From Candidatus Lokiarchaeum ossiferum (GTDB taxonomy: Archaea > Asgardarchaeota > Lokiarchaeia > Sigyniarchaeales > Promethearchaeaceae): a DNA stretch of 32,000 nt. The stretch covers positions 5,010,001 through 5,042,000 of the forward strand of contig CP104013.1 of assembly GCA_025839675.1 (NCBI GenBank), in the 5' to 3' direction. The position numbers and the translations under genes are program-made. The notes beneath the pieces were generated by a model. That model ran no database searches and was not told the origin of the DNA. It worked only from the letters and a program-made list of their open reading frames with translations. Positions 1 to 18,062 of the stretch are shown here, one piece after another (position 1 is the stretch's first letter; each line of letters opens with the position of its first letter).

Positions 1-2
1 AT

Positions 3-941
3 TATATCTATATCAAAACCCTTAATATTCCTTTTATTCGATTCTTTCAGTTTGCTTTCAAAATATCTCAATTGCTTAAGCTCAGAAAGTATGATATCGT
101 TCATTCCAGTTCAGGGGCGGGAATGTTTGTCAAAAATGTGGATTTTGAAACATTTTATCATTACGAACCATTTTCGATCCCTAACTTCAATGCGTGGATT
201 GGTTATACCCTATCGCGTGTCAGTTTGAAACGAAGCCGCCATATTTTTGCAATCTCAGAACAATCAGTAACAGAACTAATTCAATTTGAAAATCGTCGCC
301 GTGAGCTGATTTCTATTATAACAAATCCAATTGATTGCATGATTTTCAATCAAAATCATAATTTTTCTACCAAAAAGAAGGAAATACTGAAAGGAAAAGA
401 CGAAAAATTGATTCTTTCGGTTGGTCTTTTAATTAATCGGAAAAATCCCTTTTTGCTCATAAAAACTCTCGATTACATCATAAAAAAAGGAATTAATGCA
501 AAATTACTTATTATTGGCAACGGTCCTCTAAAACAAAAAATGATTCTTGCTGCTAATGAGAAAAAAATTCTCGATAATATCATTTTTATACATTCTACGG
601 GAGAAATTTACCCTTATTATTGCATGGCAGATCTCCTGCTCACTCCCAGCAAAAAAGAAGGATTTGGGTTCCTCTATCTGGAAGGACCTGCTTGTGGATG
701 CAAATTTGTCGGATTTCCTACGGGAATATCTCCCGTTGCTGCTAAAAAAAATTTGGGCATTGTTGTGAATGATGAAGTGTCGTTTATGGAATCTGCACAT
801 CAAATATTGCTTTCTGGGGACCGAACCGGTCAAGAAGAGTTTAATTTCATCTATAATAATTTTTCCATGGAAAAATTTGGAAAAAGACTGATTTCCAGTT
901 ATCAGAAATATTTAAATATAAGAGATGGTCGAAAATTTTAA
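3..941 (+). CDS. Glycosyltransferase, GT4 family (GT-B fold), 5'-partial (start lies upstream of the window)
   Basis: The frame is open from nt 3, with no stop upstream of the listed TTG at 72, so the gene begins outside the window. The C-terminal half has the Glycos_transf_1 pattern: LILSVGLLINRKNP, LLIIGNGPLK and the donor-binding motif PSKKEGFGFLYLEGPACGCKFVGFPTG (E-x7-E type). Confidence 0.8.
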   Translation, partial: YIYIKTLNIPFIRFFQFAFKISQLLKLRKYDIVHSSSGAGMFVKNVDFETFYHYEPFSIPNFNAWIGYTLSRVSLKRSRHIFAISEQSVTELIQFENRRRELISIITNPIDCMIFNQNHNFSTKKKEILKGKDEKLILSVGLLINRKNPFLLIKTLDYIIKKGINAKLLIIGNGPLKQKMILAANEKKILDNIIFIHSTGEIYPYYCMADLLLTPSKKEGFGFLYLEGPACGCKFVGFPTGISPVAAKKNLGIVVNDEVSFMESAHQILLSGDRTGQEEFNFIYNNFSMEKFGKRLISSYQKYLNIRDGRKF

Positions 942-1138
942 TTTATTGTTAAAAATCTGACTCCACCTATCATTTAGTGATTTGCATTTGAAATTCCTGT
1001 TAGAATTGTGATTTGTTTATTAACGACATTTTTTGTGACGCTACTTCTTAAATGTATGTTAAATTTTTCTTTGTATCTCATTTTAGTACTGATTAAGCTG
1101 AAAATTTAAGAAGCGTGAAGATTTTACTCACAATATAG

Positions 1139-1876
1139 ATGTTGCAAAAGTTTTTCAAACGTTTTGAAATTAAATATCAAATTTCTTTGCAAGAACGGGA
1201 TAACTTCATTGCTCATATCAAACCTTTCATGCATCTTGATTCACATACTTCCAATAATTTTTCTTATGAGGTAAGGAGTTTATATTTTGATTCACGCACA
1301 CATCATTCTTATTTTCAAAAAAATAATGGAACCAGCTATCGAAAAAAACTTCGAATTCGATATTATCCCGATTTTCAATCAATCGATGGAGAAACGGTTT
1401 TTATAGAGATAAAGAAAAAAAATAACGAAAATGTATCTAAGTCGAGAATAGTGGTTCCATTTGCTGATGCCATGAAAATTATTGATAATCACTCTCAAGA
1501 ATCACAAATTTTTTATCAAAATTCTTCAATTCAAGATAAGCGAACCCTTTCTGAAATTTGGCTCTTAGTTAAAAAACATGCTTTAACACCCGTCTGTGTA
1601 GTAAGTTACAAACGACAAGCATTTGTAGGATTAGTAGAGTCACGTTTTAGGTTGACATTCGATACAAATATAAAAGTACGAAAACAGAATTATGACCTTC
1701 ATAATGGGCATGGGATAAGTATCCTTTCTAAAAATGTTAGCGTGATGGAGATCAAATTTAACAATATCATTCCCCATTGGGCTATACGAATCGTTCAACG
1801 AAATAACCTCATACAACAAAAAATCTCAAAGTTTGCAAAGGGAATAAAAAAATCACGAAATTATTACCTAAACTGA
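1139..1876 (+). CDS. VTC-domain protein (triphosphate-tunnel / polyphosphate-polymerase-type domain), soluble
   Basis: 245-aa ORF with an ATG start and no hydrophobic helix. It has a series of beta-strand motifs with alternating charged residues, typical of the CYTH/VTC tunnel fold: RFEIKYQI, YEVRSLYFDS, KKLRIRYY, VFIEIKKK, SKSRIVV, VSYKRQAF, FRLTFDTNI, VMEIKFN. It ends 21 nt before the CotH gene. Confidence 0.8.
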   Translation: MLQKFFKRFEIKYQISLQERDNFIAHIKPFMHLDSHTSNNFSYEVRSLYFDSRTHHSYFQKNNGTSYRKKLRIRYYPDFQSIDGETVFIEIKKKNNENVSKSRIVVPFADAMKIIDNHSQESQIFYQNSSIQDKRTLSEIWLLVKKHALTPVCVVSYKRQAFVGLVESRFRLTFDTNIKVRKQNYDLHNGHGISILSKNVSVMEIKFNNIIPHWAIRIVQRNNLIQQKISKFAKGIKKSRNYYLN

Positions 1877-1897
1877 AATAAATCAAAGTGTCATAAA

Positions 1898-4747
1898 ATG
1901 AAAATTAAAGATAATAATTTCTTTGAATCCCAAATTAATTTTCAAAATCGGGTACCTTTATCAAAACAAAAAAAGGATTTCATTACTTTTGTTGTTATCT
2001 GCATTTTAACAGTAAATTTTTCCATTTTTTTCACTATCCTAGAACAACGGTCCAGCGAAGATGAACGAATACAAGAATTGTTTAATATTGATTACCAAAA
2101 TTCTTTCTCATCCCAAATCGAGATTTGTTCTTCAAAATTTCATACTAATACCATGATTTTGGAATTTTTTTGTTTTGTTCCAAAAGGATCTGAAAAAGTA
2201 TGGGTCAAATTGAATAATTCTGAGTGGATTCCCCTTCTTAAACAAGAAAATTTTATTCTCCAATCAAAGGAACCTTTTCAAAATGCTAGCCAATATTCAA
2301 TTGAGTTAAAGTGTGATACAAAAAGTTTTGAGTTCACAACCAAAATTTATAAACAAGATCTCCCAACCATTCAAATATTTTCCAGTAACCCAAAGAAAAT
2401 TATTTCAAATGAATCTGAAGAATGCCACTTTATTTTTCAGGCTAATTCGACTGTATTCAAGGAAACAGGCTATTTTTGTAGGGAAATCATTGGAACAATT
2501 CGAAATCGAAATTCTGGTAACGGCTTCTCAATTGAATTAAATCAACATGAATCCTTATTGGACATGAGAAAGGATGATGATTGGGTGCTTATTCCGAATC
2601 GTAACTATTTTAATGCTCTTCGGACTAAATTTGCGATGGATTTATTTAATTCTCTTTCACAATTGGATCCAATGTGTATTGCTCCAAAATCTGAACCCGT
2701 AGAAATATTTTTGAATGGATACTACTTAGGAGTTTATTTGTTGACCGAAAAAATAGATCGAAAACTTTTCAATCTTCCTGACAATCCGGCTGAAATTTCG
2801 GAAGAAAATTCGGTCGAAAACCCTATCGAAAATCTGGCAAAAAAAAGCGTGATCTTCAAATTGGAAGATTGGCAAGGCGATTTTTTTCACGCTACATCTC
2901 AAGGAAATGACAAGTGGGAACAAATTTATCCTAAGTCTTATCCATTTGACGATGAATATCTGAGATTGGAGGAATTCATTCAAACTAGCTCTGATGAGAT
3001 GTTTTTCAATGAAATCTCGGGAATATTTTCGTTCGTTAATTATACTCAATTAATGGATTTTATTCTATTTGACATAATTTCAGGCCATAACAGCATCGAA
3101 GGATATAAATATTACCTTGTTCAAAACGAATTTACACAATCACAATTCTGTTTTATTCCATGGGATTTTGACATGAGTTGGGGGTTTACCAATAGCTTTA
3201 TGTTATCTCCAGATTATTGGCTAAACCAAGATTCAAGTAACATTCAGTTCATTCGATGGAATAAATTAATTCAAAGAATTCTTTATCCTCAAAATACTTC
3301 CCTTAATACTCAATTTTTAACCGATCTTTCATTGCGCTGGGTATCAATACGAAATTCAATATGGACTTCTGAATATATTCAAGATTCTTTAACTTCTTTG
3401 TTTAATCAGATGTCAAATTCAATGCTTCGCCAAAATAAGTCAGAGGTGATTAATTTAATGTATACTCAAATGTCTGACTGGATCGATGTGCGATTACCTT
3501 TAATGGATCAAAAAAATTGGAGCCATAATAACGATGCTCTAAAAAATATTTCAACTTCTAATTTGCCATCGATTTCTCTTACATATAGTGCCATAATCTC
3601 TAAGGAAAGTTATGTTCAGTGCAATTTTGAGATGTTCAACTCAACCTTTGATAATAATGTACTCTCAATGAAAAGTAAAATAAAGATAAGAGGAAGGTCT
3701 GCATCTACTTTTCCAAAAAAAGGCTATCGGATTGAACTTGATAAAAAAGAATCACTATTGGGGATGAGATTTGATGATGATTGGTCTCTATTTGGAATGA
3801 ATTCTGATTTCCCACGAATGCGTCTTAAAATATCGATGGATTTATGGCGTGGTCTCCAATCTAATTCTTCAACGGCGACCTTACCACAATCTGAATATGT
3901 AAATTTAGTTATCAATGGCGTATACCAAGGATTATATCTTTTAGCGGAAAAAAATGATCCTAAACTCTATAATTTGGATGATCCACAACCAAATATCAAT
4001 TCTAGTTTGATCTTTCAAGCGATTACTTGGTCGTCTTTTCGAGAATACAAAAATTATTGTTGGGAGCAGGATTTTCCGGACATTGAAGATGGAAATATTA
4101 TTGATGAAATCTTGACCGATTTAATTGCTTTTGTGAGTGATTCACCCGATGAAATTTTTTATAATGAAACTTTTGGGGTATATTCTATCTTTAATAAACA
4201 AAATCTTATTGATTATTACCTTTACAACGTCTTTATTGGACATCTCGATTTTTGGGGAAAAAATTACTACATCATACGAAATACCGCACCAAATCAATTT
4301 TTTTTTAATCCTTGGGATTTTGATGGAACTTTTGGACAATGGGGTTGGTGGTTAGGGGAGCTGAATGAGACTGAAGGAGCTATAGGGTGGTTTGGGGATG
4401 ATATTCCAGGATTACATATTTTACGTCAAAGCCGGATTTACAATCGGTTACTGGAAAATTCAGCTTTTAGTCATGAAATAAAATTGCGCTGGAAAGATCT
4501 TCGAACCCGTTTATGGACTGAACAATATTTTCAAAATATGTATAATTCAAATTACAACAAAATCTCCCCTGTTCTCGCTCTCGATCTCCAACTTTGGAAA
4601 CCCACCACTGTAGATACAGAATTACCTTTTGAATGGCCAAATTTTGTTCTTTACAGTACAGAGACTTTTGTTTTAAACACATATCTTGAACATCTTCAAA
4701 GATATTTTCCTCAAATGCTTTCGATAATGGACGATTATTGTGCATAA
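1898..4747 (+). CDS. Membrane-anchored protein with two tandem CotH kinase-like modules
   Basis: 949 aa. A K-rich N-terminus is followed by one hydrophobic helix (FITFVVICILTVNFSIFFTIL, aa ~28-48). Two CotH-like modules follow (aa ~154-540 and ~555-949). Each carries ESLLxMRxDDDW, NGxYxGxYLLxEKxDxKLxNL and F(I/N)PWDFD motifs. There are at least 12 N-x-S/T sequons. Confidence 0.85.
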   Translation: MKIKDNNFFESQINFQNRVPLSKQKKDFITFVVICILTVNFSIFFTILEQRSSEDERIQELFNIDYQNSFSSQIEICSSKFHTNTMILEFFCFVPKGSEKVWVKLNNSEWIPLLKQENFILQSKEPFQNASQYSIELKCDTKSFEFTTKIYKQDLPTIQIFSSNPKKIISNESEECHFIFQANSTVFKETGYFCREIIGTIRNRNSGNGFSIELNQHESLLDMRKDDDWVLIPNRNYFNALRTKFAMDLFNSLSQLDPMCIAPKSEPVEIFLNGYYLGVYLLTEKIDRKLFNLPDNPAEISEENSVENPIENLAKKSVIFKLEDWQGDFFHATSQGNDKWEQIYPKSYPFDDEYLRLEEFIQTSSDEMFFNEISGIFSFVNYTQLMDFILFDIISGHNSIEGYKYYLVQNEFTQSQFCFIPWDFDMSWGFTNSFMLSPDYWLNQDSSNIQFIRWNKLIQRILYPQNTSLNTQFLTDLSLRWVSIRNSIWTSEYIQDSLTSLFNQMSNSMLRQNKSEVINLMYTQMSDWIDVRLPLMDQKNWSHNNDALKNISTSNLPSISLTYSAIISKESYVQCNFEMFNSTFDNNVLSMKSKIKIRGRSASTFPKKGYRIELDKKESLLGMRFDDDWSLFGMNSDFPRMRLKISMDLWRGLQSNSSTATLPQSEYVNLVINGVYQGLYLLAEKNDPKLYNLDDPQPNINSSLIFQAITWSSFREYKNYCWEQDFPDIEDGNIIDEILTDLIAFVSDSPDEIFYNETFGVYSIFNKQNLIDYYLYNVFIGHLDFWGKNYYIIRNTAPNQFFFNPWDFDGTFGQWGWWLGELNETEGAIGWFGDDIPGLHILRQSRIYNRLLENSAFSHEIKLRWKDLRTRLWTEQYFQNMYNSNYNKISPVLALDLQLWKPTTVDTELPFEWPNFVLYSTETFVLNTYLEHLQRYFPQMLSIMDDYCA

Positions 4748-4860
4748 TTGAATGGTAGCTCCCAAGGAAATGCACTGTTTTACGATATATTCTCATCTCC
4801 AGCCTCCGAGGAAATCCTCCCAAAATTTTAAAATTAATTAATCGTTTGGATTACATAACA

Positions 4861-5643
4861 ATGAGTAGCATAGATGGTACTTTCTTTGAGAAATTCATTC
4901 AAGATTCATTTGATAGTCTCGGAACCAACGTTTCTTCGTTAGTTTTTTCTGATATTCTGATAGTAGTATTTTGGACAACAACATTATCTCTAATTATTGC
5001 TCTCACATATCGGGGAACACATAAGGGCATTTCCTATTCTCAAAATTTTACCCAAACTCTGGTACTGTTAGGGTTAATTGTAGGAACCATTATGATTATT
5101 GTTGGGTCTGATATCGCTCGAGCTTTCACGCTTGTTGGGGCTCTATCCATTGTTCGATTTCGAAATGCAATCAAAGATACCCGAGATGTAGGCTTCATTT
5201 TCTTCACTATGGCAATCGGGATGGCATGTGGGACTCGTTTTTACTCTGTCGCTATTTTTGTCACTTTATTCGGGTGTGGATTGATGTATTTAATGTCATT
5301 TCTTGAGTTTGGTAAAAAAGAGTTAGTTCAAGATATTCTGGAGATGAATCTACCAATATCCCAAGAATATGCTCAAATTCTCTCTCCTATTTTAATCAAG
5401 TACTTGAAATACTATTCTCTACTTGGAATTGATTCGATCGATGATAAAACAAATCGGATCAGTTTTATTGTGACTTTTAAGAAGAAAACAAAGGGATTCA
5501 ATGTAATTTCCCAAATTATGAATAAAAATAAATATTCTGCTTCCGATTTGAACTCAAAAAATCTATTGTTAAAAGAACTTAATGAAAACGAATATGTTTC
5601 AGATATTAAAATTATTGAAGGGAATAATTCTACCGAAATTTAA
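4861..5643 (+). CDS. DUF4956-type integral membrane protein
   Basis: The ORF track starts at TTG 4846; the first ATG is 4861 (MSSIDG...) and is used here. There are about five hydrophobic helices (ILIVVFWTTTLSLIIALTY, TLVLLGLIVGTIMIIVG, VGFIFFTMAIGMACG, YSVAIFVTLFGCGLMYLM) and the core motif ALSIVRFRNAIKDTRDVGFIFFTMAIGMACG. A soluble tail of ~110 aa follows. Confidence 0.75.
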   Translation: MSSIDGTFFEKFIQDSFDSLGTNVSSLVFSDILIVVFWTTTLSLIIALTYRGTHKGISYSQNFTQTLVLLGLIVGTIMIIVGSDIARAFTLVGALSIVRFRNAIKDTRDVGFIFFTMAIGMACGTRFYSVAIFVTLFGCGLMYLMSFLEFGKKELVQDILEMNLPISQEYAQILSPILIKYLKYYSLLGIDSIDDKTNRISFIVTFKKKTKGFNVISQIMNKNKYSASDLNSKNLLLKELNENEYVSDIKIIEGNNSTEI

Positions 5644-5754
5644 TTCTGGAAATTAATTTAGGGAACTTCAGATCAAATAATCTCAAAAAAATTACCCCAA
5701 AATCGATTCTTTTTTAAAAAAGCAGCTAATATTGCACAAATGTTGGAATAAATA

Positions 5755-6822
5755 ATGGAAAATGAACAAATCTCTTCTAACTATAATCTTACCGTGATTT
5801 TTGTTAATTATCATTCCTTTTCTTTATTAAAAGCGGCCCTTAGTACTCTGGATGATCAAATCTATCATAATTTTCAAATTGCAATTGTTGATAACACCCC
5901 CGGAGTTGTTGAATATCAAAAATTGCAGCAGCTAGTTCAAAAAAGGAAAACGGATCGAAATCTTGCTACCATCCATTTGTTTAAACCGAAATTTAATCTC
6001 GGGTTTGCGGGAGGCAATAATTTTGCCATTAAACGGCTGAATTCTGATTTTTATTTTTTGTTAAATTGTGATACGGAGATTCCTACTCCCGACTTTTTAT
6101 CTCAAATTATGGAATATTTGTACAATCATCCTGCCGTAGGGTTTTTATCACCCAAAATGCTTTTTTATGCTGCTCCTATGCGAATATGGTATGCGGGGGC
6201 TCAGATTGCTCCTTCCAAGTTTTCCTTTATCTCCCATAATGGATTATATAAATTAGATTCCTCAACATATTCCCAAATTCGTGAAACGGATTTTGCCTGT
6301 GGGGCGGCTATGTTTGTCTCCCATAAGGTTATCCAGAAAGTTGGCCTGCTCGACGAACTATTTTTTATGTATGCAGAAGAAACCGATTGGAATGTGCGAG
6401 CCAAACATGCAGGCTTTCAAATCATCTATTTTCCCCCTGTTTCACTTTTTCATAAAGTCGATTTATTTACGGAAAGCAATAAGTGGGGGTATCGGAAAAA
6501 TTATTTCCAAGTCTATCTATACAACCGCAATAAGATTATTTTCATGCTAAAAAATTATGCCGGGCGAGAAATTTTCCTTTTTTTTACGCGTTATGAATTA
6601 AAAACGCTGGTGGCTGAACTTTATTTGGCCATCAAGATGAACCAACCGCTTTTTATCAAAGATTTTCTCCAATCTATCGTTCGGGGGGTTCAGATAGGAA
6701 TTCGACGAAGAACTCATCGAACCTGCTCCACCCTTTTGCGGAAAGAAATGGCATTTTTATCACGGGTTCAGAAAGTATCACGCAGTACGTCTTCGTCCCA
6801 AAAAGTTGATTGCAATAATTAA
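5755..6822 (+). CDS. Glycosyltransferase family 2 (GT-A fold; RfbF/WbbL-like)
   Basis: N-terminal GT-A motifs are present: LTVIFVNYHS, QIAIVDNTPG, NLGFAGGNNFAIK, FLLNCDTE (DxD-type) and ACGAAMFVSHKV. Confidence 0.85.
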   Translation: MENEQISSNYNLTVIFVNYHSFSLLKAALSTLDDQIYHNFQIAIVDNTPGVVEYQKLQQLVQKRKTDRNLATIHLFKPKFNLGFAGGNNFAIKRLNSDFYFLLNCDTEIPTPDFLSQIMEYLYNHPAVGFLSPKMLFYAAPMRIWYAGAQIAPSKFSFISHNGLYKLDSSTYSQIRETDFACGAAMFVSHKVIQKVGLLDELFFMYAEETDWNVRAKHAGFQIIYFPPVSLFHKVDLFTESNKWGYRKNYFQVYLYNRNKIIFMLKNYAGREIFLFFTRYELKTLVAELYLAIKMNQPLFIKDFLQSIVRGVQIGIRRRTHRTCSTLLRKEMAFLSRVQKVSRSTSSSQKVDCNN

Positions 6823-6831
6823 AATCTGTGC

Positions 6832-8064
6832 TTATTGGTATTTCTTTTCGCACTCGTTGTAAATTTGAATAAATTGCTTAATAATAATGTCCCAATTATA
6901 ATGGGCTCGAATTTTTTGGTGAGAATATTCGGAAAATAGCTGTTTTAACTGTTTATCTTTCAACTTTTCAAGATACTTTGCAATCTGTTTCTCATCGTGA
7001 GGGTTAACAAAATACCCGTTTTTGCTTTCCTCAATAAAATCACTCGCAAATCCCGTTCGGGTTGAAATAATGGGTAGACCGGATGCTGCCGCTTCTTGAA
7101 TGGTTTGGCCAAAGTTTTCATAGAGTGAAGTATAGACAAACACATCTGCATTTTGAAATTCTTCTATGAGATCCTGATCATATTTAGGTCCGATAAATGT
7201 TATTTTATCTGATAAGTCATGATTTTGGACCCATTGCTGCAATTCATCCAAATAACCTCCTTTTAACATCCCTGATGTCTTCATTTCTGCCCCGATGATC
7301 CGAAGTTCGACATCTTTCACCAATAGCATCGCCCTTAAGATTGGTTCTAAATTTCGATTTCTGGACAAGCGCCCTACAAATATTATTTTCAATGGGTTTT
7401 TTGATGTTGATTCGTAGAAGGTTTTGGGTTTATAGTATTTAGCGGAGTCGATTCCCATCGGAATTAGAGCCAATTTTTCTTGCGATACTCCAAAGGTCAA
7501 CGCTTCATCATATTCTAACTGTGATTCCACGATTATTTTATCTGCTCGTTTGATTATTTTTTTCCATGTTAGAATATCATATAAAATATATGGAAGCTGT
7601 TTAAACCCCGACACTACATGCTTATAACTTAATAATTGGCCACAGGGGTTGAAAATCAAAGGAATTTTTTTCTTTTTTGCTATTTTATACGCTATTTCGG
7701 TCTGAATACTCCGATAATTGAAGGCGTGGATTAAGTTTAAGTTTTTTTTCTTTAACTCTCCATACATTTGTGGGGTAAATACAAAGCGCATAATTTTTCC
7801 GTATATCTTGTAGCGTTTTACAGGAACTGCATCAAAAATTTCCTCATTTCTGCAGTCTTTTGTATCTAAATGAGAAGTAAAAATTGATGGTCTAAATCCA
7901 TCGTGCACAATTCTTCGAGCAATTCCAAACGCCTCTTTATTGGGTCCCGTTATACTTGGAAAAAATGATTCGATGGTAAAAGCGATATTCCTTGGATTTT
8001 CTTTCATCAATTGCTCTATCAATATCAGTTTTTCATACTTTTTATCTTTTTCTTCAATAGGCAT
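6832..8064 (-). CDS. Glycosyltransferase, GT4 family
   Basis: Donor-binding motif VFVYTSLYENFGQTIQEAAASGLPIISTRTG, plus KIIFVGRLSRNRN and N-terminal FFPSITGPNKEAFGIARR. The listed TTG start at 8097 is unlikely. The ATG at 8064 overlaps the last 11 nt of the upstream 964-aa gene (stop at 8054-8056). The ATG at 8007 (MKENPRNIAF) is an alternative start. Confidence 0.85.
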   Translation of the reverse strand: MPIEEKDKKYEKLILIEQLMKENPRNIAFTIESFFPSITGPNKEAFGIARRIVHDGFRPSIFTSHLDTKDCRNEEIFDAVPVKRYKIYGKIMRFVFTPQMYGELKKKNLNLIHAFNYRSIQTEIAYKIAKKKKIPLIFNPCGQLLSYKHVVSGFKQLPYILYDILTWKKIIKRADKIIVESQLEYDEALTFGVSQEKLALIPMGIDSAKYYKPKTFYESTSKNPLKIIFVGRLSRNRNLEPILRAMLLVKDVELRIIGAEMKTSGMLKGGYLDELQQWVQNHDLSDKITFIGPKYDQDLIEEFQNADVFVYTSLYENFGQTIQEAAASGLPIISTRTGFASDFIEESKNGYFVNPHDEKQIAKYLEKLKDKQLKQLFSEYSHQKIRAHYNWDIIIKQFIQIYNECEKKYQ

Positions 8065-10948
8065 ACTCCCAGAAAGTTGCAAGGATATTAATAACAATAA
8101 TGAATGCTGAAAATAATAGTAGCACCCATGTTGGTTTTGATTGCCAGAACTGTATCCATATTTTTGTTGAGGTTTGTTCCGATAAAATTAACACAAAATG
8201 TCCCAACAGAAACCAATTGGCAAATCTATAGAAATATTCCATATAGGATCCCGGTCCCAAAGGTTGAACTAAAATGAAAGTTGATGAAACTACCACAAAA
8301 ATGATATCAAAAATGATGAAGGGCATGAAGATATTAGGTTTTGATTTCATCAGATCCAAAAAACTCAGCAATACTTGGCTTAATACAATGATTTGTCCCA
8401 TGAATAATATTGCCGATACAAATGGATACCAAGAAAGCGATTGATGCGAGTAAATTTGGTTTGCCAAAATGAGAACCGATCCAAAAATCCATGTTAGTGG
8501 TAAAATATTTTTCCTCATAGCAAAATTGATTTTAGAGATTAAAAAGCGCTGAATTCTACTGAGAAACTCCATTAGGATTATAAATAAACACTGAAGAAGG
8601 TATTCCAATCTTTCAAATATCCCAAATTTTTTTGTACAAAAGAGGATAAGTAGGATAATTATTGGAATTGCGAAGAATGTGGCTGAAAAAATATTTACTA
8701 CTTGATTATTCAGCTGAGGGACTGTAAATAACGTAAATTCTCGAAGATAGTTTCGTGGAATGAATTTATCGAGTACTTGTAGGAAATAGTGTTCCAAGGA
8801 ATTTGAAATTTCTAAGGAAATATAGCTCAGCCATGAAATTGTTAGAAGTAGGAAGAATTGTCCATAAAATTTGATATCCAGTAATAATGGTTTAGTTATT
8901 GGTGTCTTTGAATACTGGTAGATCAAATAAAATATTGAAACAGGAACCACTATGAAGGCATGGGAAAAATGAAATAACGAAAGAAGACAGGACAAAATAA
9001 TGAAAATAACTCTATATTTTTCCACATCGTCATTTTTAGAAATCATTGAAAATAACAGGAGAATCAAAGATATGGTTCCTAATGTTTCCGAATTCCCTAT
9101 GTGAGTAAATTTCCACTGAATTGGTGAAGTAACAAAAATAATTATTAGAAGTATAAATGCAAACCTTCTTTTTTTGCTGTCTATATTTTCATGATTTATT
9201 TGCCATTTTTTGAAGGAAATGTGAATGATTTGAGTGAGGATAATATAAATGATAGAATTTGTAATTGGTAATAGGAAAGTGATAAAAATTTGGGTCCCAT
9301 TAATGCTGGACAAGAAAAAGGTTAGAAAAGAATACTGGGATGAAGAATAAAAAAAGAAAATTGCATAAAAATTGATAAAATAATTCTCTTTTTCAATAAA
9401 AAATGGATCAAGATGATTTACCAAATTCACAGCATCTATCCCACACCAATTCGTGGTGACATTGCCGGTGATGGAAATCAAAACTATTAAAATGAAAAGC
9501 TTTACTTGGATTTCTGATACATTGGGCTTAAATTGATAGATTTCATATAATAATAGAGTTATTAAAATTCCAAACAAAAATATTATATCTATGGGGATAA
9601 ATTGGAAAATTACTAAATTATGCAGTATTTCATAGGGGTTTTGGATTTGATCGTGAGGATTTAGGAAAATGTAAATTAGTCGGATGAAAATAACCATCGC
9701 CATAAAATAAAAACTGATATTCAATAGAAATTTGATCTCAATTCTCCCAAATTTCTTTTTTATTTTGGTAATCGTTTTTCTGAAATTCTGTGGGTTGAAG
9801 AGACCGATAATTAGAATTGAAAGTAATAAATATAATATTCGGAAAAAAGAATAGATTGAAATTAGAAGAAAATATTTCGAAATTAATAATTCAATAAAAC
9901 CAACCAATGATAAAAGCAGGATGATAGAAGAACATACAAATACTATTTTTATTTCTATTTTTTGTAAGAATTTATTGCTCAAATGGGTACAAATTAAACA
10001 GAGCTCAATAATGATTAAAAATCCTAATATATTTTGAGGTAGAATTATTCCTCCAAGGGTAATACACATCGGTAGCACGTATTTAAGCAAAAAAATCCAT
10101 ATAAATTTCTTTTCATGATATCTTGAATAAGTTTTTAAGTTATTGGGAGTAATTTTCTTTCCTTTACTCAATTTATTAATAAAATATTTAAATATTCGAG
10201 AAAGAAATTCTGATAGGTATTCTATTTTCCACAATCTTTTTTCGGTTTTTAATAATACTAAACAATATGATGCTTCAGTTCTCTTTTGTAGATATTCATG
10301 TTTTAAATGTTCTGTTTCAAAAGATTCTTCCTTTTTTGATTTTAAATATGCTCGATAGGCATTGATTTCTTTGATTCCATTTTTCATTGCCATTATTGTT
10401 GATAAAATGATATTTCCTTTCTGATTTAATTTGGAAATGTAGAAATTTATTCTATAATCATAGAAAATTAAATGTTTTGTATTTTTTTTTATCAAAAATT
10501 GGTGTTTTAACTTGTTCATATGATATTTAATTGGTTTATTTTGTAAATCTTCATTAAGTATTTCAGCTTTCCAATTATCTATTAAACTGAGCATTTTTAC
10601 TTTTTTATTTTTATATTTGGTGATTAATATGAATTTTCTTTGATAAATGTGAAAAGAGAAAAAAGCTTTTAAAAAATTATTATATTCTCGAGAAATTTGA
10701 TTTAATAGAGAGAAAAGTGTAGTTCCTATGATATAGAAACTTGAAATTATGATAAATTCTATGAAAAAATCCCGTGATTGAAATAAGATATAAAAAACTA
10801 ATAAAAATACATAGGTAATATCGAGTATTTTTGAAAAATAATATAAAAATTTGCTCAAAACCATTTTTTTTCTAAATAATTTCCCGAAATTGCTGATTTT
10901 TGTGTATTCTAAAAATGAAAATTGATTAATCTCGTTTAATTTATCCAT
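8054..10948 (-). CDS. Very large polytopic integral membrane protein, family unknown
   Basis: 964 aa. Two N-terminal hydrophobic helices are followed by a Lys-rich soluble insert of ~195 aa (aa ~85-280, nt ~10109-10696). An almost uninterrupted ~680-aa run of hydrophobic helices follows (well over a dozen). I recognised no family motif by eye. Its 3' end overlaps the start of the downstream GT4 gene. Confidence 0.8.
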   Translation of the reverse strand: MDKLNEINQFSFLEYTKISNFGKLFRKKMVLSKFLYYFSKILDITYVFLLVFYILFQSRDFFIEFIIISSFYIIGTTLFSLLNQISREYNNFLKAFFSFHIYQRKFILITKYKNKKVKMLSLIDNWKAEILNEDLQNKPIKYHMNKLKHQFLIKKNTKHLIFYDYRINFYISKLNQKGNIILSTIMAMKNGIKEINAYRAYLKSKKEESFETEHLKHEYLQKRTEASYCLVLLKTEKRLWKIEYLSEFLSRIFKYFINKLSKGKKITPNNLKTYSRYHEKKFIWIFLLKYVLPMCITLGGIILPQNILGFLIIIELCLICTHLSNKFLQKIEIKIVFVCSSIILLLSLVGFIELLISKYFLLISIYSFFRILYLLLSILIIGLFNPQNFRKTITKIKKKFGRIEIKFLLNISFYFMAMVIFIRLIYIFLNPHDQIQNPYEILHNLVIFQFIPIDIIFLFGILITLLLYEIYQFKPNVSEIQVKLFILIVLISITGNVTTNWCGIDAVNLVNHLDPFFIEKENYFINFYAIFFFYSSSQYSFLTFFLSSINGTQIFITFLLPITNSIIYIILTQIIHISFKKWQINHENIDSKKRRFAFILLIIIFVTSPIQWKFTHIGNSETLGTISLILLLFSMISKNDDVEKYRVIFIILSCLLSLFHFSHAFIVVPVSIFYLIYQYSKTPITKPLLLDIKFYGQFFLLLTISWLSYISLEISNSLEHYFLQVLDKFIPRNYLREFTLFTVPQLNNQVVNIFSATFFAIPIIILLILFCTKKFGIFERLEYLLQCLFIILMEFLSRIQRFLISKINFAMRKNILPLTWIFGSVLILANQIYSHQSLSWYPFVSAILFMGQIIVLSQVLLSFLDLMKSKPNIFMPFIIFDIIFVVVSSTFILVQPLGPGSYMEYFYRFANWFLLGHFVLILSEQTSTKIWIQFWQSKPTWVLLLFSAFIIVINILATFWEYAY

Positions 10949-11055
10949 ATTTCTAACCTTGAATCATTGTTCATTTGTTATTTTTTTTAATATCTAATTG
11001 AAATTAGTATATACGAATCTAAATACTATCAAATTCGAAAATTTTAACGATTTTG

Positions 11056-12174
11056 TTAGAATTTTAGTTTATTTTTGATAAGAATTGTGAAAACTCCTAT
11101 GACTCCAAAAATAAGAAAGTTTTTCATATTGAAATTACTAAAAATATCTTTGAAGGTAGAAATTGCTGTTTTAGGAATGACTTTTATTTTCACTACATTA
11201 GATATGAATCCTCCATAGCCATCAATTAATTCGATTTTGTAAAAATATTCACCAATATCTAAATTATCTACATTAATCCTTATATGTTCATTAGAAATCC
11301 AAGAATGGGATGAGTTTTCAAGAATAAATGTCCCATTTCTATAGATCGTATATGTTGAGATTGATTCATTCACTACAAAATCTTTTATTATCCACTCAAT
11401 AAAATTTCCTTTTGTACCTTTTTCATAAGTTAATGAATTAGGGATCTTTAAAAATTCAGGATTTTTAAAATTGCTTTTTACCCCTCCTATAGTTGAAAAA
11501 GCTTCTCCTTCAGAAATCCCGACATATAAAGCATCAATATATACGTGATAATTTGAATCAATTGGTGAACTTGCAAAATATGCATAAGAGACATTATGAT
11601 CAGTGTCATTTCCTATATCTTCATACTCCAAAAAACCATCGATAAATACTTTGAGAGAATGAGTTTTACCATTAAAAGCATCTTTGATGCAAATATGATA
11701 CCAAGTATTTGATTCAATTTCTGATATCATATTTTTTCCATTTTTTCCAGTAAAATAAAACCCAGAATTTTCGATACTAAAAACGAATAGTATTTTCTTC
11801 CATCCTTCAATTGAAGTTCTATAATAAAATCTATTTTCAGAATTATCAATTTGTATCCAAAACGAAGTAAAATATGTAGAATTTATATGAGAGGTATCAA
11901 TTATAGCCAAATTGGAATTTTCAGAATTTTCATCACTTATATTGTCATAAAAATCTAATGGGTATTGATGACCATTTATTTCTGGAATTATTTCTATATA
12001 TGATCTATCTTCAAACGGGCGTATATATGAAAATCCATTAGATGGGGCACCATTTTCACCCCATTGAATTATTCCTGGATGATTCTTAAAATTTTTAGTA
12101 GTTGATGCACTTATTGGCAAAAAAGTTGGAGAAATAAAACTTATAAAAATTAAAGCAATAGTAATATTTCTCAT
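11056..12174 (-). CDS. Secreted, C-terminally membrane-anchored surface protein with a LamG/concanavalin-like domain
   Basis: The listed start is GTG 12186; the ATG at 12174 gives a classic signal peptide (MRNITIALIFISFISPTFLPISAS). LamG-like motif WYHICIKDAFNGKTHSLKVFIDGFLEYE. Ig/Fn3-like C-terminal module (YTIYRNGTFILEN...YFYKIELIDGYGGFISNVVKIKV). Terminal hydrophobic anchor FLIFGVIGVFTILI followed by KNKLKF. Seven N-x-S/T sequons. Confidence 0.6.
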   Translation of the reverse strand: MRNITIALIFISFISPTFLPISASTTKNFKNHPGIIQWGENGAPSNGFSYIRPFEDRSYIEIIPEINGHQYPLDFYDNISDENSENSNLAIIDTSHINSTYFTSFWIQIDNSENRFYYRTSIEGWKKILFVFSIENSGFYFTGKNGKNMISEIESNTWYHICIKDAFNGKTHSLKVFIDGFLEYEDIGNDTDHNVSYAYFASSPIDSNYHVYIDALYVGISEGEAFSTIGGVKSNFKNPEFLKIPNSLTYEKGTKGNFIEWIIKDFVVNESISTYTIYRNGTFILENSSHSWISNEHIRINVDNLDIGEYFYKIELIDGYGGFISNVVKIKVIPKTAISTFKDIFSNFNMKNFLIFGVIGVFTILIKNKLKF

Positions 12175-13594
12175 AAATCCCAACACGATTATCCTATTAT
12201 CAAGTAATTTTCCAGACTTTAAAATTTTTTTTATGTAAAAACGAGTAATAAGACTTTTGGATGATGAAAAAAAATTTATTTGTTTTACTTTTCGATGATT
12301 GAAGGCCGAGTTTTCCCGAATCGTGAGAAATTAATCAATTATATTTTATAACCACTCCTACTGTAATTCGATAGATCAATCAAAAAATAATATGTTGATG
12401 ACTTATTTTATCTCTATATTCATCATGAAGGGTGAATTCCATATTCTGCCCGAAATATCTATTCATTTCGATCCCAAAATTCCATTAATTGACAAGAACT
12501 TCATGAAATGTTTGAGAGCATGTTGATAAATATGACATTCAAATCTTAGGAATTATCATTGACAAGCAAAATATTACTGAGATGTTGCATCTGTTTTATG
12601 AAAAGTGTGAATAAGAATGTATATTTTGGAAGGGGTGATATTCAATCAGTAAAGGAAGTTTTTCAATCTATAGATAAAGATCTTCAAAAATTACAAAAGT
12701 CGGGAATTAACTCTTTAAACTGTTTCGTTGAGTGTGATAATATCAAGTAATACTAATAAAAGTTCAAGATATGTAAGATCTGACAAAACAAGTGGATTCT
12801 ACAATATGAGTAATAAAAAATTTTTGCACGCATATGTACAATGTGAGGTATCCTACAATAATATTCTTTTCTTTTTGAGCAAAATTCTGAAATCACCGCT
12901 CTCTCAATTAAATTCTTAATATATGCTTATGGAAGCCCCTGCAAGTTAAGCTTCATAATTTGCCTCACTTTCGGAATGTTATCATTTTACTGCAATTTTT
13001 ATAAATAGGCTTTAATAAATAGGTTCGAATTTAGGAAATGTGTGCATTTATGATAGATTATTGAAATATGCGATATAAAATGGTTTAGGCTTCATTCGGT
13101 CGAAAATATTTAATTTTACTTAAAGGTTCTTGTTGGATATAGTTTTATCTTGTTGAATCCTGCAATTATCAACTCCTTTAAAAATATATGCTGAATAACT
13201 ATCCTTTTATGGTAGTAATTTTACTCCTACTTTCTTTAATACGTGATTTTATTAGTGTATTTGATTCTTAAAGCGTTGGAATTTTGTTATTGATGTTTTT
13301 TTATAGTTTTTTGTCTCCTAATAAATTTAATTTGTCTAGAATTAATTTCTAAAATTTAATCATTCAAATCCTATTCATTAATTTTTGATTTTTATTTACA
13401 ATTTCTTTAAGCTGTCTTGGGTGTTTTTAATTTTTTAAAATTCTAGATAAAATTACAGAAAAAAATAAAAATAATTAATGAGACACCAAATATTGCATCC
13501 ATTCTTAATTCTTATATTATTTGGAATATTTTATCAACTATATTTAGATTTTCTCTGCATTCAACAAAATAAAATTAACTGATGATTCGATAAA

Positions 13595-14740
13595 ATGAAA
13601 AAAATAAAAATAATTTTTTACTTAAAAGGATATGGAAATGCAATTCCAGGTGCAGAATCTGCAGGATATCATATTTTGCAGTCGATTATTGACAGAAATG
13701 ATTTGAAAATTATTATTGTTTCTGATCAAAAGGCAAAATGTCAAAGGAATGAGATCTTATTCAAACATAAAAATCTTCCAATAAATTTACCAATATTAAA
13801 TTTTATAATTAATAATTTTTTTGCTAAACGAATGATTAAAAATGTTACAGAGATATTTTCACCGGATATAATTCACATTCAAGGCTTTTCAGGAAACTAT
13901 CCAACACTTAAAACACAAATAAAAAAAATACTAACTTTACATGATGATCCTTCAATGGAAATCTATGATAGAAATAGAAATGATCCATTAAAATTTTTTG
14001 AATATTTTTGGTTTAAATTTATAAAATGGTCCATTTCAAAAGCAATTAGAAATTTTGACTTTTTTCATGTAGGTTCTTCGAAAATGATCAGAGCTCTCCA
14101 ATATCAAGGGGTAACAAGCGAGCGAATTTATCAAATTCCAAATGGAAGAGATAACTTGATAAATAAAAAGGAAGAATTAGAATCAGAAACTAAGAAATCA
14201 ATTAAGATAGCAGATAATTCAATAATTAAAATGATAATGGTTGGGACAATAGAGTATAGGAAAGGGACATTGAGTGTGGCACAAAGTTTAGAATATTTAC
14301 CACCAAATTTCCATCTCCTACTTGTGGGAAAATCTCAACCCATTATTGGAATTCCATACTTGAAAAAAGTATTAAAAATTAATAGAAAAAAAATTCATTA
14401 TTTAGGATATTTACAAAAGCAACAGTATTTATCCGTTTTGGAGATGGCAGATATTTATATATCTGCAAGCAATTATGAAGCGTGTCAATTGGTACCACTA
14501 GACGCGCTATTTTTAAGAAAAAAAGTAGTTACTACTACTGCTGGAGCAATTCCTGATTTTCTCTCAAAAGATTATCCATATTTTTTGAAATCTAATGATC
14601 CATCAGAAATTTCAAAAATTATTTTAAAAGCAAGATTGTCAAATCAGTATGAATCTAGTTTCATTAAATCTTATCCAAAAACTTGGAAAGTTATTGGTGA
14701 AGAAATATCCAAAATTTATGATTTTATCTTAAAAAGCTAA
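13595..14740 (+). CDS. Glycosyltransferase, GT4 family
   Basis: 381 aa with GT-B features: IIHIQGFSG in the N-domain, MIMVGTIEYRKG and LLLVGKS, and the donor motif ADIYISASNYEACQLVPLDALFLRKKVVTTTAGAIPDF. Confidence 0.75.
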   Translation: MKKIKIIFYLKGYGNAIPGAESAGYHILQSIIDRNDLKIIIVSDQKAKCQRNEILFKHKNLPINLPILNFIINNFFAKRMIKNVTEIFSPDIIHIQGFSGNYPTLKTQIKKILTLHDDPSMEIYDRNRNDPLKFFEYFWFKFIKWSISKAIRNFDFFHVGSSKMIRALQYQGVTSERIYQIPNGRDNLINKKEELESETKKSIKIADNSIIKMIMVGTIEYRKGTLSVAQSLEYLPPNFHLLLVGKSQPIIGIPYLKKVLKINRKKIHYLGYLQKQQYLSVLEMADIYISASNYEACQLVPLDALFLRKKVVTTTAGAIPDFLSKDYPYFLKSNDPSEISKIILKARLSNQYESSFIKSYPKTWKVIGEEISKIYDFILKS

Positions 14741-14835
14741 CTTAAGGGAAGTAAGAAAAAAATCACTTAATTGATAATATACATTTATAAACAAATCACC
14801 CAGCCAGAAGAAAAGTTTTTCTTTTTCAATTTAAA

Positions 14836-15160
14836 TTCTATGAGGTTCTATCAAGATTTATTAGATTAAATATTTTATCACCCTTGTGAAATTCATGCCG
14901 ACTTATGAGCCATCTATCCCACTAATATACCAATTTAGATTTTTGATAAATCATTTCTAAGATGTTTATCTCGCTCAAATTCAATAAAAAAGGAGTACCT
15001 CTTAGATTTTTAAACATAAATCATACGTTCGATTTCATAAAAGGATCGAAATTTCAATTCGACAAAATTGAAAATTGGATAAATTCTCAAAACGGGTTAA
15101 GTAACTCGAAGTAAATCAAAAAAAGTTTAAATTGATAAATCTTGATAGATCCTCCTATAA
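14836..15160. repeat. MITE-like inverted-repeat element (alternatively a long stem-loop)
   Basis: The 35-nt terminal inverted repeats at 14836-14870 and 15126-15160 match at 29/35 positions. They share a perfect 15-nt core (tctatcaagatttat at 14847-14861; reverse complement at 15135-15149). They enclose 255 nt of ORF-free AT-rich DNA inside the 647-nt gap between two GT4 genes. Confidence 0.45.
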
Positions 15161-15387
15161 CATTTTGAGATAGATTGAATTAAATTTCAGTCAAATGTCA
15201 TATATTTGTCAAGTGGGAAATTGTAATTAAAAATTAACACTTTTTTGATCTTAACTCAGGAAATTTAAATAGATAAGTAGAAAATTTGTTAATAGACATT
15301 AGTATTAATCTATGTAATGAATTTTTCAAAATTTGCTCAATTCATTTTTTTTTATTTATCAAAATTTTTTTTAAATAATTTACTTGT

Positions 15388-16530
15388 ATGGTTTGTGATA
15401 AAATGAATAAAAATAAAGGAATTTGTGTTGTAAATTTTCCAATCTTAAAAACCGGAGTGAAGCCAGTATTTCAATTAATTCAGATAATTAAACAAGTTAA
15501 AGATACAAATTATTTAATATGTGGAAGTTTAGATAATCATTCCTTAGAAAAAATGATTCCAGACATACATTATATAAAAATTGACCACAGAAAAATGGAA
15601 AATTTCTTTTTTAGAATTGTTTCTTACATACGAACTCAGATATTGATGACAATCGAAATAATTAAATTGAAAAATGTTGTTGAAACTTATTTATTTTTTA
15701 TTGGAACTGAAGATATGATAATTCCTCATTTAGTTAGTAAAATTTTGAGGAAGAAAACACTATTTCTACTCGCAGGATTCCCATCGAAAAGAAGTTATTC
15801 AAATAAAGATCTATTTTTCATATTTCAGAAAGCCTTATCTAAAATTAACTTCTTTTTAACCAATAAAGTATTGGTTTATTCAAAAGAAATAATTACTGAG
15901 CGGAATTTACATTATCTTGATAAAAAAATTGCTGTTTTTCAGAGACATTATATCCCCCATTCAGAAATTCTTTTTAAAAATATTAGCAAGAAAAAAGAAA
16001 ATATTGGATTTCTTGGAGAAATTTGTTTACCAAAAGGGATTCAAAACTTGATAGTTGCTATAAAACAATTGAAAGATCAAAAAGTAAATGTAAATTTACA
16101 CATTGGAGGTTTTGGGGAAAAAAAATTTGTAGATAAGCTAAAGAAATATATTGAAAAAACTGATTTGAAAAATCAAGTTTTTTTTCATGGTTGGATAAAC
16201 AGAGAAGACATTCCCTTATTTTTGTCAAATATGAAATATTTCATATTACCTTCCTTAAGTGAAGGTTTACCGAATGTTTTATTAGAAGCGATGGGATGTG
16301 GATGTTGCGTCATTTCTACGAAAGTTGGGGGTATTCCAGATATTATAGTTGATTCGGTTAATGGAATATTATTGGAATCAAATTCAACAGATGCAATAGT
16401 TGATGGATTTCTTAGAACAAAATCATTAAATCTTGATATCTTGTCCAAAAATGCATCCGAATTTATTAAAAAGAAGTTTTCATTCAAATACTCAGTTGAG
16501 AATTTCCGCTCAATTTATAAAAAAATTTAA
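15388..16530 (+). CDS. Glycosyltransferase, GT4 family
   Basis: Canonical GT4 donor motif YFILPSLSEGLPNVLLEAMGCGCCVISTKVGGIPDIIVDSVNGILLE (E-x7-E), plus IGFLGEICLPKGI. An alternative ATG lies at 15403 (MNKNKGICVV). Confidence 0.85.
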   Translation: MVCDKMNKNKGICVVNFPILKTGVKPVFQLIQIIKQVKDTNYLICGSLDNHSLEKMIPDIHYIKIDHRKMENFFFRIVSYIRTQILMTIEIIKLKNVVETYLFFIGTEDMIIPHLVSKILRKKTLFLLAGFPSKRSYSNKDLFFIFQKALSKINFFLTNKVLVYSKEIITERNLHYLDKKIAVFQRHYIPHSEILFKNISKKKENIGFLGEICLPKGIQNLIVAIKQLKDQKVNVNLHIGGFGEKKFVDKLKKYIEKTDLKNQVFFHGWINREDIPLFLSNMKYFILPSLSEGLPNVLLEAMGCGCCVISTKVGGIPDIIVDSVNGILLESNSTDAIVDGFLRTKSLNLDILSKNASEFIKKKFSFKYSVENFRSIYKKI

Positions 16531-16535
16531 ACAAG

Positions 16536-17570: not shown

Positions 17571-18062
17571 GTTAAATTTACTTCTTTTATTTGTGTAATA
17601 TGACTTTTAGTTGTGGACTTTTTTTTCTTCTAAGGAAATAAGTGGAAATAAATTTTTGAGCAATTATTGCATTTTATATACGTTTCTAAAGCTTTAATGA
17701 TATAACCTATTCTCCTTCATTAGATAATTGAACAGGTGGCGACCAATATAATTATTTACTAATATTCTGAATCAATTTGTTTTCTAATTTCTCCAAACCG
17801 TTTTGTCTAAAAATTTTTAGATTCAATTCGATTATTGGTTGCACGTTTTTTACTAATAATTTGAATTATTCTTGATTTGATTCTCTATTTAATGGATGGA
17901 TCAAATTAAATCATAAGAAAATAGTATTTCAAAAGGATTATTTTAATTAAAATTGCTAATAATTAAATCTCTCTTTTAGAAATTTTGCATAGGGATTTAT
18001 AAAATAAATATAAATCAAAGCATTAGGTAATTTTTAATAAAGAAGGAATTTGACTTTAAGTA

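Follow-up and report, generated by a model that had tools for sequence, protein, structure and literature searches.

A conserved VTC, CotH and DUF4956 gene cassette in an Asgard archaeon, a candidate system for polyphosphate synthesis and possibly export

The window analysed here is a stretch of 32,000 nucleotides from Candidatus Lokiarchaeum ossiferum, an Asgard archaeon (contig CP104013.1, positions 5,010,001 to 5,042,000; coordinates given without a locus label are positions in this window). Three co-oriented genes form a cassette on its forward strand. The first (1139..1876, +) encodes a stand-alone, soluble VTC-type triphosphate-tunnel protein of 245 residues, which is 100% identical to NEF87_004287. 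The second (1898..4747, +) encodes a CotH-family surface protein of 949 residues with an N-terminal signal anchor, a spacer, and two CotH modules. The third (4861..5643, +; NEF87_004289) encodes a DUF4956 membrane protein of 260 residues when read from ATG. The cassette had been picked out in an earlier reading made without database searches (the sequence-only reading); its three open reading frames are found where it placed them, its VTC, CotH, and DUF4956 assignments agree with a Pfam profile search, and the gap it gave between the VTC and CotH genes is indeed 21 nucleotides. Its figures for the third gene hold in part. The gap of 113 nucleotides is right only with ATG at 4861, which gives 260 residues, while the 265 residues it reported would need TTG at 4846 and leave a gap of 98 nucleotides. 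ATG at 4861 is the NCBI start and agrees with the N-termini of homologues. NCBIfam has no model for any of the three proteins. The cassette is a real, conserved, and functionally uncharacterised system. It is an archaeal copy of a widespread prokaryotic cassette already in the literature, the conserved core of which is a predicted VTC-type polyphosphate (polyP) polymerase together with the DUF4956 membrane protein.

The 245-residue protein matches Pfam VTC (PF09359) with an E-value of 7e-43 and a score of 147.3 bits (gathering cutoff 23). The match spans residues 7-238 and covers positions 1-233 of the 235 in the profile. The protein holds the VTC domain only; neither an SPX domain nor the three-helix VTC transmembrane domain is found in it, and it is soluble, as described earlier, without a hydrophobic segment. 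Its AlphaFold2 model (predicted local distance difference test, pLDDT, 81.6) has eight long strands, and the eight charged beta-strand motifs that had first suggested the tunnel fold all fall within them. In a Foldseek search with this model the best 13 matches are all Vtc4, Vtc3, or Vtc2 structures (template modelling, TM, score 0.61-0.71; E 5e-13 to 5e-10), the best being Vtc4 (3g3r_B, TM 0.71, E 5e-13). Other tunnel enzymes (CYTH, thiamine-triphosphatase) rank behind the VTC structures with E-values of at least 1e-6.

Sequence identity between this protein and Vtc4 is only about 18-20%. It is reported from a cryo-electron microscopy study of yeast VTC that K200, R264, R266, K281, Y359, R361, S457, and K458 bind triphosphate and E426 binds Mn2+, that all nine residues are needed for polyP synthesis (mutations reduce polyP), and that K458 is the one residue that differs in the inactive Vtc2/3. 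In the HMMER alignment, R72, R74, K92, Y157, R159, S230, and K231 of the window protein align to Vtc4 R264, R266, K281, Y359, R361, S457, and K458. The remaining two, K12 and E204, are assigned to Vtc4 K200 and E426 by motif and spacing only: the R8-K12 spacing equals that of R196-K200 in Vtc4, and E204 sits in an ExK strand. All nine positions are 93-100% conserved in 143 diverse homologues, whose median identity to the window protein is 30%. The comparison of the tunnel Lys, Arg, and Glu residues with Vtc4, which the sequence-only reading had proposed, finds all nine Vtc4 active-site residues kept. The protein is predicted to be a polyP polymerase, and both its sequence and its fold support this activity well.

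The family is large, with 9,656 VTC cluster representatives at E <= 1e-3, and nearly all of the top 150 representatives are stand-alone proteins of about 240-300 residues. No natural VTC-DUF4956 fusion is found among these 150. The sole fusion found, in a bacterial locus (L036 4370-5980), involves a different polytopic domain: the protein of 536 residues consists of an N-terminal polytopic membrane domain (about 290 residues), an acidic linker, and a C-terminal VTC domain. The fusion gene is followed by DUF4956 and CotH and has a GT2-family glycosyltransferase gene upstream. The cassette shows the catalytic half of the VTC machinery to be present in Asgard archaea. A crude comparison of scores reveals no special affinity of Asgard VTC proteins to eukaryotic Vtc4. 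Because Asgard VTC proteins are no nearer to yeast Vtc4 by score than those of other prokaryotes, Asgard descent of the eukaryotic VTC complex is not claimed, and no specific Asgard origin of that complex is indicated.

The third protein matches Pfam DUF4956 (PF16316) with an E-value of 1.4e-15 (57.9 bits, gathering cutoff 30.6), and all 33 of its aligned homologues match as well. In the AlphaFold2 model (pLDDT 81.4), helices at residues 29-53, 61-81, 84-102, 107-124, and 128-147 are followed by a C-terminal beta-alpha-beta-beta-alpha-beta domain. The sequence-only reading had counted about five helices and quoted a motif; the motif is present and the model has five membrane helices. The C-terminal domain weakly resembles ACT, NikR, and the MgtC C-terminus (Foldseek E at least 0.012). 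The Pfam MgtC score of the protein is 17 bits, below the gathering cutoff of 31.4, and such sub-threshold MgtC matches are found in 19 of the 33 homologues. JGI labels relatives of the protein YhiD. Judged from the model and these matches, DUF4956 is MgtC/YhiD-like, with five predicted membrane helices and a putatively cytoplasmic ACT-like domain. It shares with the MgtC/YhiD family the order of several membrane helices and then a cytoplasmic ACT-like domain, as well as the weak but recurrent profile matches. It differs in falling below the Pfam MgtC threshold, and so constitutes a separate family, and in its genomic partners, which are VTC, CotH, or membrane-fusion protein (MFP) and TolC genes. 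Two basic loops are conserved, YRGTH[KR] and RFRxxxKDxRD (YRGTHK and RFRNAIKDTRD in the window copy), and R99-F100-R101 is near-invariant in every DUF4956 protein examined, across all context classes. The charge bias places the N-terminus outside and both conserved basic loops and the ACT-like domain in the cytoplasm, the predicted side of the loops being that of the soluble polymerase.

The cassette was compared with 22 other Asgard loci from Promethearchaeota (Lokiarchaeia), Thor-, Hermod-, and Hodarchaeota, including a second copy in L. ossiferum itself (L038). VTC is directly followed by DUF4956 on the same strand in 21 of the 22. Over 22 Asgard loci with the window included, VTC recurs in 22, CotH in 21, and DUF4956 in 21. 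No family besides these three recurs among the Asgard loci compared, and a fourth universal component is not found in them. The arrangement is far beyond chance. The exception in adjacency is Candidatus Harpocratesius repetitus (L022 7920-10585), where the cassette seems to have decayed: CotH is broken up into pieces of 97 and 209 residues, the VTC match covers the first ~150 residues only, and DUF4956 is not detected.

The same pairing is found in bacteria. VTC is directly followed by DUF4956 in 10 of 11 bacterial VTC loci, spanning Acidobacteriota, Bacillota, Actinomycetota, and Bacteroidota-like contigs; the order in the eleventh is DUF4956-CotH-VTC. CotH is detected in seven of the 11. Several of these loci, e.g., those of Pseudobutyrivibrio, Planococcus, and L036, are embedded in glycosyltransferase clusters. 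The proposal that DUF4956 is the membrane partner of the VTC protein gains strong backing from this near-invariant adjacency in Archaea and four bacterial phyla. Because the gene order is so constant, a VTC-DUF4956 partnership is well supported, as far as synteny can indicate one.

CotH is a frequent but variable third gene of the cassette. The 949-residue window protein matches Pfam CotH (PF08757; E 1e-55, 190 bits, gathering cutoff 23.8) in two stretches, module 1 (about residues 150-540; 2345..3517, +) and module 2 (residues 551-949; 3548..4744, +). It has exactly one hydrophobic segment, at residues 26-50 (1973..2047, +), which is taken as its single transmembrane anchor. There are 6 K/R and 3 D/E before this segment, and 2 K/R and 6 D/E after it; by this positive-inside bias the anchor is predicted to lie N-in, C-out. 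An equivalent N-terminus, basic and then hydrophobic, is found in all Asgard CotH paralogues. Streptococcal CotH homologues are reported in secretomes (bioRxiv 10.1101/2024.04.20.589940). The outward orientation proposed earlier fits the charge bias and the common Asgard anchor. The argument made for it from N-x-S/T sequons fails, since 15 are observed and 11.1 +/- 2.9 are expected from composition. Sequon enrichment is rejected as evidence of topology; the cytoplasmic VTC protein has a higher sequon density.

The protein had also been described as a tandem CotH kinase, which is correct for the two modules and for module 2, which keeps the catalytic residues, but not for module 1, which is without the catalytic-loop Asp and Asn. 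In B. subtilis CotH, mutation of either D228 or D251 inactivates the protein; these catalytic residues are those given in PMC7821199, and their counterparts here were located from the spacing and from an alignment with B. cereus CotH (5JD9). D784 (in GHLDFWGKNYY), N789, and D807 (in PWDFD) of module 2 align with 5JD9, and the Asp-Asp spacing of 23 residues equals that of D228-D251. In module 1 the catalytic loop reads GHNSIEGYKYY (residues 396-406). PWDFD is kept, and 23 residues ahead of its Asp (D423) the position holds Ser or Ile instead of Asp. Lys stands in place of the Asn at +5, and the N-lobe motif 'RG..S..KK[GS]Y' is deleted. Module 1 is probably a pseudokinase, judging from these residues.

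Module 2 therefore resembles the Bacillus spore-coat kinase (PDB 5JD9/5JDA) in its Pfam fold family, catalytic-loop Asp, +5 Asn, metal-binding Asp, and identical spacing. The window protein differs from it in carrying an extra, degenerate module and in being N-terminally anchored and predicted to face outward in a host not known to sporulate, whereas Bacillus CotH acts in spore-coat assembly. The coat is assembled within the mother cell, with ATP available. No cotB/cotG-like substrate gene with Ser/Lys/Arg repeats was noticed in the window. CotH is described as a distant relative of the secretory kinases of the Fam20C family.

Among the Asgard loci CotH is found wherever the flanking sequence allows, in interchangeable forms. 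One is a long 'type A' upstream of the pair, with a degenerate active site including PWNFAQ; another, the short 'type B', has intact motifs and is present in one to four copies on the opposite strand. The third is the A-B fusion seen in the window and in L021, and the fourth is a CotH+LTD, or 'A2', protein whose active site is largely intact. Module 1 of the window protein groups with type A, which also loses the DFD motif (PWNFAQ), and module 2 groups with type B. The L021 orthologue, of 909 residues, has the same tandem layout. Type A proteins (~882 residues) read GHEIIEGSSYY ... PWNFAQSWG and have no equivalents of B. subtilis D228, the +5 Asn, or D251; they are probably pseudokinases, or else proteins with a different active site. 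Type A is the sole CotH in nine Asgard cassettes (L003, L005-L008, L010, L012-L014), where it lies upstream of VTC.

The second L. ossiferum cassette (L038 4533-8768, also L002 7316-11560) has the canonical order CotH+LTD, VTC, DUF4956, with products of 890, 248, and 255 residues, the last being NEF87_000438. Its identity to the window copy is ~55-59%, and no glycosyltransferases lie close to it. Two small, divergently oriented genes recur upstream of cassettes of this CotH+LTD type (L001 6090-7169, L002 6075-7148, and L038 3292-4365; also L018, L020, and L022). They encode a ~250-residue protein without a Pfam match and a ~100-residue protein with a weak winged-helix match, which is possibly a local regulator.

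DUF4956 is found in other contexts too. In Hymenobacter (L030 5775-9015) and Spirosoma (L033 4903-8063) it lies between membrane-fusion-type and TolC/OEP-family genes, and in Chondrinema (L031 6917-9857) it is followed by an HlyD-family adaptor gene. These three Cytophagales loci are operon-like clusters without VTC within 6-7 kb, and near DUF4956 the MFP/TolC/HlyD loci have no other annotated inner-membrane transporter. In two Bacteroidota-like contigs (L034 4174-6675 and L035 4189-6675) a membrane-fusion-like gene, VTC, and DUF4956 overlap or nearly abut, with no CotH in the cluster. The adaptor-like protein of these two contigs is homologous (30-35% identity) to the adaptor of the DUF4956-TolC loci. 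Of the four adaptor-like proteins, three match HlyD_3 (best E 2e-7); the MFP ZneB is the best match in the PDB. These five loci place DUF4956 in the slot where an inner-membrane exporter normally sits and tie VTC to a trans-envelope apparatus. They lend indirect support to export of polyP by the cassette, which is plausible, and DUF4956 may form the inner-membrane component of a tripartite exporter so far unrecognised. A third, different context is that of Sinorhizobium meliloti pSymA (L032 5251-7621), where the gene directly before DUF4956 encodes a 538-residue protein with a caspase domain (Peptidase_C14). VTC is absent from this locus, and a NAGPA phosphodiester glycosidase lies close by.

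In 2019/2020 the three genes were reported as accessory genes that adjoin the pel operons of streptococci, clostridia, and bifidobacteria (Whitfield et al., bioRxiv 10.1101/768473 = PMC7112168). The S. intermedius triad SIR_1594-1592 was discussed in 2024 as comprising a CotH that is secreted and has catalytic residues, a Vtc4-like protein, and an MgtC-like protein with four transmembrane helices and an ACT domain (bioRxiv 10.1101/2024.04.20.589940). Related genes are carried by NELoc-2 of C. perfringens. The statement of the sequence-only reading that this association is uncharacterised holds for function, as a functional test is reported in neither work, but the association itself had already been described beside Gram-positive pel operons. 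No literature on Asgard CotH, Asgard VTC, or the Asgard cassette was found. The 2024 preprint reported that the triad is not found outside pel operons (bioRxiv 10.1101/2024.04.20.589940); the present loci extend this statement, as the triad occurs widely outside them. The window cassette resembles the pel accessory cassette in that its genes are contiguous and encode a CotH (secreted or anchored), a soluble protein like Vtc4 that has catalytic residues, and an MgtC-like ACT-domain membrane protein, and in its linkage to surface-polysaccharide genes. It differs in its Asgard host, in the absence of adjoining pelDEA(DA)FG genes, in its order (VTC-CotH-DUF4956, compared with CotH-VTC-DUF4956 in pel loci), and in its CotH, a fusion of a degenerate and an intact module without an FN3 domain. 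What is new here is the archaeal cassette with a variant gene order and a fused CotH.

Another system for comparison is the eukaryotic VTC complex (Vtc4/Vtc3 or Vtc2/Vtc1; PDB 7YTJ, 8I6V). The tunnel-domain fold, the nine active-site residues, and the pairing with a membrane partner are common to both, and the synthesis-coupled translocation of the complex is a model that the window cassette may parallel. The window cassette has neither SPX nor a fused or separate three-helix (DUF202-type) VTC membrane domain. Its predicted membrane partner, MgtC-like, has five helices and an ACT-like domain, and no resemblance of its fold to the VTC pore is detected.

The best explanation, held tentatively and at somewhat less than an even chance, is that the VTC protein makes polyP, that DUF4956 tethers it and conducts or gates export of the product, and that the surface CotH acts with the polymer or on surface targets. 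The tunnel enzyme, at the cytoplasmic membrane face, would make polyP from ATP in a Vtc4-type site of Lys, Arg, Tyr, Ser, and Glu-Mn2+. DUF4956 would bind the polymerase, as synteny suggests, and hold it at the membrane. Probably oligomeric, it would also conduct the nascent polyP chain outward or gate its passage, a function like that of the Vtc1/3/4 pore with an unrelated fold. The 949-residue protein, with its type-II anchor, would display a degenerate and an intact CotH module on the cell surface. There CotH might act together with the exported polymer or upon it, or else upon glycans or proteins of the surface, and in the window copy its role is probably tied to the surrounding glycosyltransferase island.

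Several points weigh against this explanation. The literature yielded no report on the biochemistry of any prokaryotic VTC-domain protein, polyP synthesis included. Among the Foldseek matches listed, the membrane domain of DUF4956 shows no fold similarity to the VTC pore or to any transporter. To our knowledge, no protein of the MgtC/YhiD family is known as a channel. The MFP/TolC contexts amount to only five loci, in three of which there is no VTC within 6-7 kb. Because DUF4956 also adjoins a caspase-like gene, it may be a generic membrane module. The nine Asgard cassettes with only a degenerate CotH argue against a kinase in need of a donor as the unifying logic. The authors of the 2024 preprint suggested that streptococcal polyP stays cytoplasmic (bioRxiv 10.1101/2024.04.20.589940).

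Some of these points favour a different role for DUF4956, which we regard as somewhat unlikely and yet the strongest competitor. PolyP would stay in the cytoplasm, as favoured in the streptococcal study, and DUF4956 would be an MgtC-like anchor and sensor that switches the polymerase according to a metabolite bound by its ACT-like domain, playing an SPX-like part, with CotH acting independently. The MgtC/YhiD-like architecture with its ACT-like C-terminal domain speaks for such a role, as ACT domains are usually allosteric sensors, and so does the lack of a channel-like fold match for DUF4956. MgtC itself is described as a regulator of ATP and phosphate homeostasis and not as a transporter (bioRxiv 10.1101/2024.04.20.589940). 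A sensor of this kind leaves unexplained the persistent linkage of an extracytoplasmic CotH, the clustering of VTC-DUF4956 with a periplasmic adaptor, and the slot of DUF4956 beside MFP/TolC genes.

In a bolder reading, VTC and DUF4956 would be a synthesis-coupled polyP exporter that feeds energy and phosphate to surface CotH-fold proteins. This reading is unlikely. If it were true, synthesis-coupled export would parallel that of the eukaryotic VTC complex while being built on an unrelated MgtC-like membrane protein, and exported polyP would solve how an extracytoplasmic kinase works without ATP. That polyP serves CotH as phosphoryl donor is purely speculative, and the many Asgard cassettes whose only CotH is degenerate weaken the idea as a general rationale.

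A narrower role as a surface-polymer accessory would have CotH phosphorylate a polysaccharide or glycoprotein, much like Fam20B or POMK, with VTC-DUF4956 supplying exported polyP where ATP is lacking. The cassette does lie within glycosyltransferase clusters here and in several bacteria, and beside pel operons elsewhere; the active site of module 2 is intact, CotH has its distant relation to the Fam20C family, and the MFP/TolC-type contexts hint at export. Nevertheless, most Asgard cassettes, including the second L. ossiferum copy and the tandem-CotH locus L021, have no glycosyltransferase nearby, many have a degenerate CotH only, and in several bacteria no CotH is detected with the VTC-DUF4956 pair. 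Neither use of polyP nor phosphorylation of sugars is known for any CotH. An accessory of this kind is improbable. Weakest of all, and very improbable, is a cassette unrelated to polyP whose tunnel enzyme is a triphosphatase, a nucleotide cyclase, or another tunnel metalloenzyme, since although the superfamily includes many hydrolases, identity to Vtc4 is low (about 18-20%), and no prokaryotic activity report was found, the nine Vtc4 polymerase residues are conserved, including the Lys that separates active Vtc4 from inactive Vtc2/3, and VTC structural matches (E 1e-10 to 5e-13) outrank CYTH and thiamine-triphosphatase (E at least 1e-6).

Prokaryotic polyP synthesis is attributed to PPK1 and PPK2. 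Surface polyP is reported in some organisms. The cassette is a concrete candidate for polyP synthesis in prokaryotes, for delivery of polyP to the surface, and for donor supply to secreted kinases. If the synthesis-coupled exporter were real, it would add a third prokaryotic route beside PPK1 and PPK2 and would be the first dedicated prokaryotic polyP exporter known. The scale is considerable, with thousands of stand-alone VTC clusters in Archaea and at least four bacterial phyla. The pairing rule is VTC and then DUF4956, and the context follows the envelope: CotH in archaea and monoderms, a periplasmic adaptor or TolC in Bacteroidota.

Outside the cassette the window is taken up by a surface-glycan island, which holds GT4-family glycosyltransferase genes, an ATP-grasp gene, a GT-C-like/beta-helix protein, two large polytopic proteins, a methyltransferase, a PGA_cap/CapA-like protein, and an IS110 transposase. 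Three glycosyltransferase genes flank the cassette, outside its core. A GT4 gene (72..941, +; Pfam Glycos_transf_1, E 8e-22) precedes it. The GT2 gene that the sequence-only reading had placed after the cassette is found as the next gene after DUF4956 (5755..6822, +; Pfam Glycos_transf_2, PF00535, E 4e-8). It is followed by another GT4 gene (6832..8097, -; Pfam Glycos_transf_1, E 7e-34). This last gene scores 43 bits on the PelF model, for which the cutoff is 100, and is not PelF. Membership of the locus in a pel operon is rejected, the neighbours scoring 43 and 37 bits on that model. No other Pel families are found in the window, no NCBIfam model reaches its cutoff for the GT4 gene at 72..941, and only weak NCBIfam matches are found for the GT2 gene. 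The locus is a generic glycosyltransferase island and not pel. A glycan island as a general trait of tandem-CotH cassettes is likewise rejected, as L021 and the canonical Asgard loci have no glycosyltransferases.

The GT4 gene at 72-941 is short (289 residues, TTG start) and matches the GT4 N-terminal domain profile from position 68 onward only; it may be truncated or mis-started. On the reverse strand, 8054-10948 (-) encodes a 964-residue polytopic protein without a family match, and the start overlaps the end of the GT4 gene by 44 nucleotides. Like it, a 938-residue protein (18063-20879, +) is a very large membrane protein; it has a weakly AftA_N-like (GT-C) N-terminal region and a C-terminal right-handed beta-helix. 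Other genes encode a RimK-like ATP-grasp protein (16536-17570, +) and the PGA_cap/CapA-like protein (30696-31841, +; E 1.5e-61). Together, the RimK-like and CapA-like genes hint at a poly-amino-acid or capsule-like surface polymer in an Asgard archaeon. The IS110-family transposase (21918-23183, -) lies inside the island, and the G+C content changes in blocks, being about 0.29-0.37 at 1-9000, 0.22-0.29 at 9000-21000, and 0.33-0.36 at 21000-27000. The transposase and these shifts suggest a mosaic, possibly mobile region.

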